Position numbers and translations under genes: made by a program. From a bacterium (lineage in GTDB: Bacteria > Latescibacterota > Latescibacteria > Latescibacterales > Latescibacteraceae), in assembly GCA_021372535.1 (NCBI GenBank), contig JAJFUH010000149.1:10803-74802 (forward strand): a stretch of 64,000 nt of DNA. The letters run 5' to 3'. Under the pieces are notes generated by a model. It searched no databases. It was not told the origin of the DNA and saw nothing but the letters and a program-made list of their open reading frames with translations. Below are positions 48,452 through 50,338 of the stretch, in pieces (the first letter of the stretch is position 1; the number at the start of each line of letters is the position of its first letter).

Positions 48452-48506
48452 TAAGGAAAGCCTTTCAGGAATAATTAACCCGTCAATTCACAAAGTTTAA
48501 TAGAAC

Positions 48507-48541
48507 GCGGATTTACGCGGATCAGGCGGATTTACGCGGAT
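48507..48541. repeat. short tandem repeat (2 x GCGGATTTACGCGGAT)
   Basis: GCGGATTTACGCGGAT at 48507-48522 and again at 48526-48541, separated by CAG. Each unit itself contains two GCGGAT cores. Confidence 0.8.
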
Positions 48542-48782
48542 TTGTTTTTTAAATATCTTTTTGGTGTCAATGATTAATTGTCACTAAAATTAGTATTAAT
48601 AATCTATTATGTCTCTTTGTGGAGAGATATTTTCACGAATAATCCGGGCAGAAAAAACCGTCACAAAAAATATATAATATATTTTTAGCTATATTACTAT
48701 AATTTTTGGGAACATTGCTTTTTATTCAGCGTTTCATTATTATAGGTGTTATAATTATTCTCATCATTCGAAAGGAAAACCA

Positions 48783-49364
48783 ATGAGATCTTCTTTTGCT
48801 GTACCGGTTGTATTTATTGCTTCCGCATTTTTCTTCGCATGCGGCAGCGGAAACAAAACTCCCGAAGCCGACCAGAATACGGCCCCGAAACCGCTTCAGC
48901 TCGCCCAGAACACCACGGCAGAACAGCAAGCGCAGGTCGATTTTACATGGTTTACCGACTGGGACAAGGGAATCGAGGAGGCTAAAAAAACAAAGAAGCC
49001 GGTGGTCGTCGATTTTTATGCCGACTGGTGCGTTTACTGCAAGAAAATGGACAAGGAAACCTTTTCCGCTCCCGAGATCAAAAAACGCCTTGCCGATGGA
49101 TGGATCGGCATCAGGCTCAATGCCGAAAAAGGCGATTTGAGCGGTACATATGACGGTAAAACCATGACCTACCCGCAGCTTACACAATATTTTGGCGTGA
49201 CCGGTTTTCCATCATTCCTGTTCATTGATAAAGAACTGAAGCCGATGCGGCCTGTCCCGGGTTTCATCGAAAAAGACACGTTCGGTCCGATGCTCGATTT
49301 TATCAAAGACGAAGTATATAAAAAGAATGTCTCGTTCCAGGACTATATGAAATCCAGAAAGTAA
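48783..49364 (+). CDS. thioredoxin-fold lipoprotein resembling the DsbD gamma domain
   Basis: 193 aa. Lipobox FFFACG. The VVDFYADWCVYCKKMDKETF active site closely resembles DsbD C-terminal DLYADWCVACKEFEKYTF, as recalled. Confidence 0.8.
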   Translation: MRSSFAVPVVFIASAFFFACGSGNKTPEADQNTAPKPLQLAQNTTAEQQAQVDFTWFTDWDKGIEEAKKTKKPVVVDFYADWCVYCKKMDKETFSAPEIKKRLADGWIGIRLNAEKGDLSGTYDGKTMTYPQLTQYFGVTGFPSFLFIDKELKPMRPVPGFIEKDTFGPMLDFIKDEVYKKNVSFQDYMKSRK

Positions 49365-49375
49365 GCGGGGACGAT

Positions 49376-49525
49376 ATGTCAGCGCTCAACAGCAAACGGA
49401 CTGTACAGATTTCACTTCTCGTGCTTTCGGTTGTACTCATAGCAGCCGGTGTCATGCGTGAAGAAGTGTTCGATGTTATTTCAAATGCCACCATACTCTG
49501 TTTTTCATGCATAGGATTGAAATAG
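49376..49525 (+). CDS. 49-aa membrane-anchored CXXC peptide (CD1871A-like family); absent from the supplied ORF track
   Basis: ATG 49376 to TAG 49525: MSALNSKRTVQISLLVLSVVLIAAGVMREEVFDVISNATILCFSCIGLK. One TM helix plus a C-terminal CFSC. It starts 11 nt after the thioredoxin-like gene and ends 6 nt before the polyferredoxin gene. Confidence 0.65.
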   Translation: MSALNSKRTVQISLLVLSVVLIAAGVMREEVFDVISNATILCFSCIGLK

Positions 49526-49531
49526 ACCGAC

Positions 49532-50338
49532 ATGGTTTTGGGCAGAATCAAAAGATTATGGTGGCAGATAACCGGCGCAGTACTCTTTAATTTTCCCTTT
49601 GTCGGGCATCTGACGCTGCCATGGCTTCCGGTACCGGTGCTCAACTGCTATTCATGCCCGCTCGCGCAGGGCGCCTGCCCGATAGGAACCATACAGCATT
49701 TCTTCGTTATCGGTGTCCTGCCGTTCTTTGCAGTGGGTGTTGTAGCGATCTTCGGTGTCACCGCCGGGCGGTTTTACTGCAGCCACCTCTGCCCGTTCGG
49801 ATTCCTCCAGGATTTGCTGGGAAGGTTATCACGGTTCAAGGCAAGGATGCCCCGGTTCGTCGGGTACGGTAAATATGCCGTTCTCATAATCATGGTTATT
49901 ATTCTGCCGCCACTCGTTAAAGAACCCTTCTTCTGTACACTCTGCCCCGCAGGGAGCCTTGAAGCGGGAATACCCATCGTGACCGGCGCATGGCTCGATT
50001 CGCGGTCGGCAGACGCGGGAATCTTCGGAGGTTCGAGCGGGATTCTTGCAATGATCGGCTGGTGGTTCTGGTTTAAAATCGGTATTCTCGTGTTGATTCT
50101 GGCCGTCGCGGTATTCATCAAACGGCCGTTCTGCCGTGCCTTCTGCCCGCTCGGGGCGCTGTTCGGCCTGTTCAACCGCATTTCCCTGTTCTTCAGGCAT
50201 CCGGGGGCTCTTCACGGTGACCGTCCCCACTACAATCTCAGGACATGCCCTGTCCACATCACCGATCCCCGCGATGTCGATTCACACAACTGCATCAAAT
50301 GCCGTGAATGCTATACACATCCTGCCCACACTGATTGA
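49532..50338 (+). CDS. NapH/MauN-like integral-membrane 4Fe-4S (polyferredoxin) protein
   Basis: 268 aa, multi-TM. Repeated CxxCP/CxxxCP motifs (CYSCPLAQGACP, CSHLCPFG, CTLCPAG, CRAFCPLG) and a C-terminal CIKCREC. Confidence 0.75.
   Translation: MVLGRIKRLWWQITGAVLFNFPFVGHLTLPWLPVPVLNCYSCPLAQGACPIGTIQHFFVIGVLPFFAVGVVAIFGVTAGRFYCSHLCPFGFLQDLLGRLSRFKARMPRFVGYGKYAVLIIMVIILPPLVKEPFFCTLCPAGSLEAGIPIVTGAWLDSRSADAGIFGGSSGILAMIGWWFWFKIGILVLILAVAVFIKRPFCRAFCPLGALFGLFNRISLFFRHPGALHGDRPHYNLRTCPVHITDPRDVDSHNCIKCRECYTHPAHTD

Follow-up and report, generated by a model that had tools for sequence, protein, structure and literature searches.

A predicted iron-sulfur membrane module with a CxxC or UxxC micro-protein, and its link to exported thioredoxins, in a Latescibacterota genome and other bacteria

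Cytochrome c maturation, peroxide defence, synthesis of the spore cortex and the repair of envelope proteins after oxidation all rest on extracytoplasmic reduction, which is thought to depend on cysteine relays of the DsbD/CcdA type. Another way of reducing disulfides is found in ferredoxin:thioredoxin reductase (FTR) and heterodisulfide reductase, where a [4Fe-4S] centre passes single electrons into a disulfide/dithiol. NapH-like modules have been described as modular transmembrane electron conduits, leading from the membrane or the cytoplasm to extracytosolic redox partners (PMC8238504, PMC5928378). Here, we analyze a three-gene locus (positions 48,783 to 50,338, plus strand) in a 64,000-nt stretch of DNA, hereafter called the window, of a Latescibacteraceae bacterium (Latescibacterota; assembly GCA_021372535.1, contig JAJFUH010000149.1, positions 10,803 to 74,802 of the forward strand). 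The locus encodes an exported thioredoxin-fold protein, a 49-aa CxxC peptide and a NapH-like polyferredoxin. The comparisons presented below make it probable that the trio is one membrane redox module, which would carry cytoplasmic electrons by an iron-sulfur-based path to the exported thioredoxin, i.e., would do a CcdA/DsbD-like job with another membrane component. No published description of a pathway joining a NapH-like protein and a thioredoxin was found in the literature.

The three genes are co-directional and tightly spaced. The thioredoxin gene (open reading frame (ORF) 1; 48783..49364, +; 193 aa) is separated by 11 nt from the peptide gene (ORF 2; 49376..49525, +; 49 aa), which is followed after 6 nt by the polyferredoxin gene (ORF 3; 49532..50338, +; 268 aa). 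ORF 1 matches Pfam Thioredoxin_2 (62.7 bits) and Thioredoxin_7 (58.7 bits), and the NCBIfam DsbD model NF001419 over positions 444-569 only, i.e., the gamma region (65.7 bits, the whole-protein cut-off being 330). The solved structures nearest to ORF 1 are DsbD gamma domains (2fwe, E 2.4e-15, residues 45-170), with whose active site its W82-C83-V-Y-C86 motif (49026..49040, +) aligns. As read from the sequence, its hydrophobic N-terminus forms a signal peptide with a lipobox-like FFAC (Cys20; 48783..48842, +); because Phe at position -3 is unusual for a lipobox, we only infer that ORF 1 is lipidated at Cys20.

ORF 2 has a basic N-terminus, a single hydrophobic helix and a C42-F-S-C45 motif (49499..49510, +), and fits the form of the CD1871A family (a length of about 40-60 aa, with a hydrophobic helix in the N-terminal part and a tail with CxxC[IM]G at the C-terminus). 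Its match with the family model NF040920, the only one in the whole genome of the window, scores 28.4 bits (E 1.1e-6, model positions 2-37 of 38) and does not reach the curated cut-off of 32. A profile seeded with ORF 2 recovers Clostridia members lying above this cut-off (e.g., that of locus L053, at 64.5 bits). By its sequence, ORF 2 resembles the CD1871A family as a divergent relative, not as a certified member. No paper naming the family was found in the literature. ORF 3, a four-helix membrane iron-sulfur protein, matches the Pfam model PF12801 (Fer4_5) in three stretches with 76.1 bits (cut-off 22); its scores against the NapH models TIGR02163 (33.6 bits, cut-off 213) and NF007013 (27.3 bits, cut-off 234) are low, and the flanking genes, which were checked, provide no nap operon context (napA, napG and others). 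These results agree with the first-pass annotation, made from the letters and open reading frames alone, which had recognised the spacing of the three co-directional genes, a thioredoxin active site like that of DsbD gamma, a single-helix 49-aa peptide ending in CFSC and a multi-helix NapH-type protein with CxxCP/CxxxCP and CxxCxxC motifs; the profile assignments of all three genes came out as it had stated, with the peptide below its family cut-off. Two further Fer4_5 proteins are encoded in the genome of the window (G000:C49:104708-105232 and G000:C230:16857-17282, in frames of 578 and 263 aa).

The co-occurrence of these genes was followed in two sets of genomes. The cross-phylum set came from a scan with one genome per species, which yielded at least 594 polyferredoxin relatives, and its best 80 loci, from more than 15 phyla, were used; the Clostridia set comprised 300 sampled species, searched from the NCBIfam peptide model. 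In the former, 72 of the 80 loci were found, with a profile seeded from the window's peptide, to have a peptide gene preceding that of the polyferredoxin. A motif search added two peptides, one cut by a contig edge and one located 3.4 kb away, and one further locus begins at a contig edge, without upstream sequence, so a peptide is recognisable in 74 of the 79 informative loci. In the latter set, the peptide is carried by 56 of the 300 species and the polyferredoxin subfamily by the same 56, while two further genomes gave weak polyferredoxin matches only (E about 1e-21 to 1e-26); in all 30 Clostridia loci that were fetched, the polyferredoxin gene lies directly downstream of the peptide gene. 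As judged from gene content and order, the peptide and the polyferredoxin are an obligate pair. Recurrence of the trio in other genomes, which had been named beforehand as a check, was found in both sets. Because the same gene set is met again in many phyla, the arrangement of the trio is far beyond chance, and chance adjacency was ruled out by the co-occurrence counts.

Some variation in the layout of the pair was also observed. In three Desulfamplus loci (L036, L038, and L060), a peptide gene with selenocysteine (Sec, U) in place of the first cysteine (the UxxC form) lies about 1-1.8 kb from the polyferredoxin gene, and in L036 a gene for a PemK/MazF-like toxin (L036:3744-4172) stands between the two. 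The genome of the isolate Tissierella simiarum (G008; loci L053 and L104) carries three copies of the pair and no DsbD_TM match.

The third gene of the locus also has its counterparts elsewhere. Redoxin, AhpC-TSA, Thioredoxin_8, and Thioredoxin are the Pfam families met most often among the immediate same-strand upstream neighbours of the pair. A thioredoxin-fold profile detected an ORF of this fold at a distance of up to 5 kb in 37 of 80 loci; in 22 of 79 loci, such an ORF is co-directional and not more than 1.5 kb away. In the window's own genome, there are only 14 ORFs of this fold in 5.35 Mb. CxxC or UxxC is present in 15 of the 22 adjacent thioredoxin-fold genes of the cross-phylum set. 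In Clostridia, a thioredoxin-fold gene is adjacent to the pair or fused with it in 35 of the 46 genomes with sequence in hand, and two of these partners, scanned against NCBIfam, gave ResA, TlpA, and StoA as the best models, all below their cut-offs. Most of the thioredoxin-fold partners examined start with a signal or lipoprotein-type N-terminus.

Natural fusions are stronger evidence for the thioredoxin link than the neighbourhood counts. Of the 120 longer homologues listed, about 110 are single chains with Fer4_5, ferredoxin and Redoxin/Thioredoxin domains. In one of these proteins (P0222), a KKR-flanked helix stands between the ferredoxin domain and a thioredoxin domain with a WCSGC site, which must place the two domains on different sides of the membrane; a fused form also keeps the peptide gene directly upstream (genome G155). 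At the other end of the chain, P0122 has a GltD-like NAD(P)H flavoprotein (Fer4_20 + Pyr_redox_2) fused to the cytoplasmic N-terminus of the polyferredoxin, and its locus (L074) holds one UxxC peptide and two UxxC thioredoxins. Both gene order and domain architecture indicate that the pair is strongly associated, and naturally fused, with thioredoxin-fold domains. A different fusion was seen in P0121, a longer homologue in which the Fer4_5 module is joined to an FGE-sulfatase domain (PF03781).

The peptide itself provides the next line of evidence. Its C42, C45, and G47 are invariant across homologues, and in 30 of 73 peptides the first cysteine of the CxxC motif is replaced by an in-frame TGA, after which xxCIG[IV]G follows in frame, and then a true stop codon. 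A hairpin starts 13-15 nt after the TGA, with the stem GGGRUC/GAYCCC, the loop GGGU and a 3' arm reaching past the stop codon; its pairing holds in 82.8% of cells, both sides are changed in 14 cells, and none of 500 shuffles reached its score. In the published model of the bacterial selenocysteine insertion sequence (SECIS), the apical loop is small, rich in G and placed 16-37 nt from the UGA (PMC13188914), and the hairpin found here fits this model. SelA was found in four of the five UxxC genomes tested, and the fifth has a SelA fragment at a contig end. What was found for the peptide family is thus what marks a bacterial selenoprotein, i.e., a TGA aligned with Cys, a SECIS-like hairpin and the Sec machinery. 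On the polyferredoxin tree, at least 3-4 switches between Cys and Sec took place. Since Cys and Sec are exchanged at the first position of the motif, the comparison argues that the CxxC of the peptide is redox-active.

The peptide of the window is of the Cys form, though its genome has SelA. The Sec peptides score 20.9-28.6 bits against NF040920 or do not match it, and no NCBIfam model recognises them above its cut-off; NF040920 is also missing among the 119 selenoprotein families listed in a 2026 review, and a 2022 preprint on new selenoprotein families deals with a different locus, CD2365-CD2369 (10.1101/2022.07.06.499078). A membrane selenopeptide of about 45 residues would be a new selenoprotein family. 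Some thioredoxins beside the pair are UxxC as well. In Clostridia, TlpA/ResA-like genes with an in-frame TGA and a T-U-P-x-C active site were noted in three loci (L100:2448-3095, L115:1670-2332, and L119:3-500); two of their products have lipoprotein-type N-termini, the third being truncated at a gap in the sequence.

The polyferredoxin has 875 homologues of similar length, and an alignment of 82 of them was used to judge its cysteines, which are arranged in ORF 3 as C39xxC42P, C49P, C83xxxC87P, C135xxC138P, C201xxxC205P, C239P, and C254xxC257xxC260. Invariant are C39, C42, C49, C83, C87, C138, C201, C205, C239, C254, and C260; C257 is nearly invariant and C135 is variable. The CX3CP type of motif, as in C83xxxC87P, is present also in NapH, NosR, and RdhC (PMC5928378). 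In Latescibacterota, the C-terminal ferredoxin-like region (C239P with C254xxC257xxC260; 50246..50311, +) has just the ligand set of one [4Fe-4S] cluster, four cysteines, and none of the four ligands for a second cluster; in other lineages, the two-cluster motif is complete.

The AlphaFold2 model of ORF 3 is confident, with a mean pLDDT (predicted local distance difference test) of 86.3. A Foldseek search of the Protein Data Bank (PDB) with this model returned nothing at E <= 0.001, a wide VIA-align search with ORF 3 gave a best Z of only 2.1, and a profile search of PDB sequences produced only weak ferredoxin-like matches, at the C-terminus. Prediction of a complex of the polyferredoxin, the peptide and three 4Fe-4S ligands, in which the rows with TGA=C translations were left out of the peptide alignment, gave scores of 0.09 and 0.06, where the mark is 0.32.

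Charge distribution and fusions both bear on the topology. The number of Lys and Arg residues, taken over the 82 sequences, is 2.5 for the N-terminus, 0.6 for loop A (C39xxC42P...C49P; 49646..49681, +) and 5.4 for loop B, which contains C83xxxC87P after helix 2 (49778..49795, +); loop C (C135xxC138P; 49934..49948, +) is net acidic, C201xxxC205P after helix 4 (50132..50149, +) is flanked by Lys/Arg, and the C-terminus is basic. The N-terminal flavoprotein of P0122 and the C-terminal ferredoxin domain of the polyferredoxin both call for ends that lie in the cytoplasm. The part of the peptide that precedes the helix is basic and the one that follows is acidic, as for a protein with the N-terminus inside and the C-terminus outside. 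Taken together, the charge bias and the fusions indicate that loops A and C (C39, C42, C49, C135, and C138) and the CxxC of the peptide face outward. The two CX3CP motifs and the ferredoxin-type clusters are thus predicted to lie on the inner side, and C39, C42, C49, and C138, together with the peptide CxxC, on the outer one. Inward-facing CX3CP motifs have also been reported for NapH and NosR (PMC5928378). The first-pass annotation had proposed a topology check of its route, and the predicted position of the peptide CxxC and of the four invariant polyferredoxin cysteines on the outer face is the one that such a route requires.

These data allow a pathway to be proposed. A low-potential donor of the cytoplasm, likely a ferredoxin, and in some lineages the fused GltD-like NAD(P)H flavoprotein, would give electrons to the C-terminal ferredoxin-type [4Fe-4S] domain of the polyferredoxin. 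From there, they would pass to the two CX3CP motifs on the cytoplasmic side of the NapH-like core with its four helices and on to the outward C39, C42, C49, and C138, which would reduce the CxxC (UxxC in many species) on the outer tail of the 49-aa peptide. The peptide could then reduce the WCVYC site of the DsbD-gamma-like thioredoxin, and the latter, its periplasmic clients. We infer that the parts touch, that electrons flow outward and that the donor and the clients are those named; the outer cysteines would either hold a cluster or act as a dithiol relay. In outline, this is the route suggested at first pass, with electrons reaching the thioredoxin through membrane Fe-S clusters and the CXXC peptide; the pairing, the topology, the Cys/Sec exchange, the fusions and the ResB-CcsA operons described below speak for it, and the presence of CcdA in the genome speaks against it.

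No match with DsbD_TM/CcdA (PF02683) was found in the window, all three proteins of the trio included. The earlier statement that no CcdA/DsbD-beta-like gene is present here is thus right for the window and wrong for the genome, which encodes a canonical CcdA (G000:C39:22166-22888, 163 bits); the PF02683 matches of the genome are all located on contigs other than that of the window. This protein might be the one that reduces the thioredoxin, in which case the pair would perform some other extracytoplasmic electron transfer (e.g., a quinol-linked one, as in NapH) and the thioredoxin would be its client or a maintenance factor. Such an explanation is in line with the DsbD-gamma type of ORF 1, whose known partner is a DsbD_TM domain, and with the presence of both systems in several genomes. 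We nevertheless regard it as unlikely, as the CcdA gene is located on another contig and has no exported thioredoxin alongside, and as 39 of the 56 module-bearing Clostridia species have no DsbD_TM match, yet ResA/TlpA-like proteins adjoin their modules; the natural fusions of polyferredoxin and thioredoxin also argue against it. A DsbD_TM match was found in 17 of the 56 module-bearing Clostridia versus 123 of the 244 others (odds ratio 0.43, p = 0.007, with kinship ignored). A strict replacement of CcdA by the module, which was also considered, was ruled out, as many genomes hold both.

The module, as preferred here, would supply reductant, and its genomic context points the same way. In five loci of the cross-phylum set, the pair ends a ResB-CcsA operon, and in nine, CcsA lies within 5 kb. 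In cytochrome c biogenesis of the System II type, such a place belongs to CcdA or DipZ. This matters for the possibility of a reverse flow, in which the module would be an oxidant sink similar to DsbB/VKOR and electrons would run from the thioredoxin-fold protein through the Fe-S centres to a quinone or a cytoplasmic acceptor. Iron-sulfur chains are reversible, NapH itself is regarded as a quinol dehydrogenase, and modules of its kind have been proposed to work with reductases and oxidases alike (PMC8238504). Reverse flow nevertheless appears improbable to us, and slightly more so than the explanation by CcdA, when several features are considered: the two scanned partners are ResA/TlpA/StoA-like and that of the window is DsbD-gamma-like, with WCGPC-type motifs present; no DsbA family is among the 25 neighbour families listed; a GltD-like NAD(P)H flavoprotein is fused to the module; the module occurs in cytochrome c biogenesis operons, where reductant is needed; and its hosts, according to the titles of the loci, are mostly strict anaerobes.

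The same neighbourhoods bear on a role in metal or metalloid handling, in which the module would act as a surface metal reductase or chaperone and the CxxC/UxxC of the peptide would bind metal. CcoG, a Fer4_5 protein, is a cupric reductase, which gives a model for such a role, and TlpA-type proteins are generally known to assist the assembly of copper centres in some bacteria; metal-trafficking proteins, moreover, contain CxxC and Sec motifs (10.1101/2022.07.06.499078). Still, no family of metal transporters or chaperones was met repeatedly in the neighbourhoods, where the partners that do recur are proteins of the thioredoxin fold and genes of cytochrome c biogenesis, so we find this the least probable of the explanations discussed, and quite improbable in itself.

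Several observations weigh against the proposal that the trio is an Fe-S-based reductant pathway, and they are given together here. The canonical CcdA of the window's genome could reduce the ORF 1 thioredoxin, many genomes carry both the module and CcdA, and the negative association between the two was calculated without correction for phylogeny. A single clade provides the ResB-CcsA link. Of the 22 thioredoxin-fold genes adjacent to the pair in the cross-phylum set, seven, all of one clade, have SxxS and not CxxC. There is no obvious route for Fe-S cluster assembly on the outer face, and the role of the CX3CP motif is debated even in NapH and NosR (PMC5928378).

SxxS proteins were noted upstream of the pair in a single UxxC clade (L017:3654-4778, L023:3411-4565, and L024:3047-4228). 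Those of L017 and L024 are fused to tetratricopeptide repeats (TPR), one of them being near the CcmH/CycH TPR model, and such SxxS-TPR proteins may be redox-inactive and involved in the handling of apocytochromes.

The surroundings of the trio in the window are unrelated to it: a gene for an RlmI-like methyltransferase is located upstream, and the downstream genes encode an AIR-synthase-related protein and a GAF histidine kinase. A scan of the locus for promoters and terminators gave results no better than those for shuffled sequence. Contigs identical to positions 48787-49236 and 49535-49757 were found in two wastewater metatranscriptome libraries of one study; none of them bridges the three genes, and they are a weak hint of transcription, as the libraries may hold DNA. 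In the AT-rich spacer upstream of the thioredoxin gene (48486-48550), the depth of metagenome contigs is about 15-20 times that of the surroundings, and many of the contigs covering it continue into dissimilar sequence at both ends; this segment looks like a dispersed multi-copy repeat.

When compared with known systems, the module shares its predicted job, i.e., the passing of cytoplasmic reducing power to an extracytoplasmic thioredoxin, with DsbD, CcdA, and ScsB, which are built on the DsbD_TM domain (PF02683). Among the acceptors of these systems (DsbD-gamma, ResA, TlpA, CcmG, and StoA), the thioredoxin of the window is nearest to DsbD-gamma, and the two scanned partners from Clostridia are nearest to ResA, TlpA, and StoA. 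Both systems are found in System II cytochrome c operons and both exist in split and fused forms. The module differs in having no DsbD_TM domain, the place of which would be taken by a Fer4_5 iron-sulfur protein and a separate CxxC/UxxC peptide, and its input is probably of the one-electron type (ferredoxin/Fe-S) and not from a cytoplasmic thioredoxin. FTR and heterodisulfide reductase are soluble or differently built and have no sequence relation to the module, so they may serve as a mechanistic analogy only. The peptide of the window shares with the CD1871A family (NF040920) the size of about 50 aa, the N-terminal helix, the C-terminal CxxCIG tail and the position directly in front of a polyferredoxin gene, and differs from it in scoring below the cut-off.

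A wider claim can be put forward, for and against which the evidence seems to us evenly balanced, namely that the peptide, the polyferredoxin and the thioredoxin make up a third class of transmembrane disulfide-reducing system. It would be Fe-S-based and independent of DsbD_TM, would bring single electrons in an FTR-like manner into an outward CxxC/UxxC micro-protein, uncatalogued in its Sec form, and would supply reductant to System II in some lineages. If this is true, a second route would explain how ResA/TlpA-like proteins are kept reduced in many anaerobes without a detectable CcdA, and CX3CP modules could be tested by a readout, namely whether the thioredoxin fused with them or encoded beside them is reduced or oxidised. 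The Latescibacterota copy would then be a module with a thioredoxin of the DsbD-gamma type and a ferredoxin domain cut to a single cluster.

With NapH, NosR, RdhC/PceC, and MauN (PF12801), the polyferredoxin has in common the four-helix core, two CX3CP motifs and, RdhC excepted, the C-terminal ferredoxin domain. In contrast to this group, it lies far below the NapH model cut-off, lacks an FMN-binding domain, is not encoded among nap, nos or rdh genes, and carries additional invariant cysteines, which follow helices 1 and 3 and lie on the other face; moreover, its partners are a CxxC peptide and a thioredoxin, not NapG or a flavinylated domain. Among the NapH-like modules for extracytosolic electron transfer, which have been described with flavinylated partners (PMC8238504), the one presented here can be viewed as a new variant.

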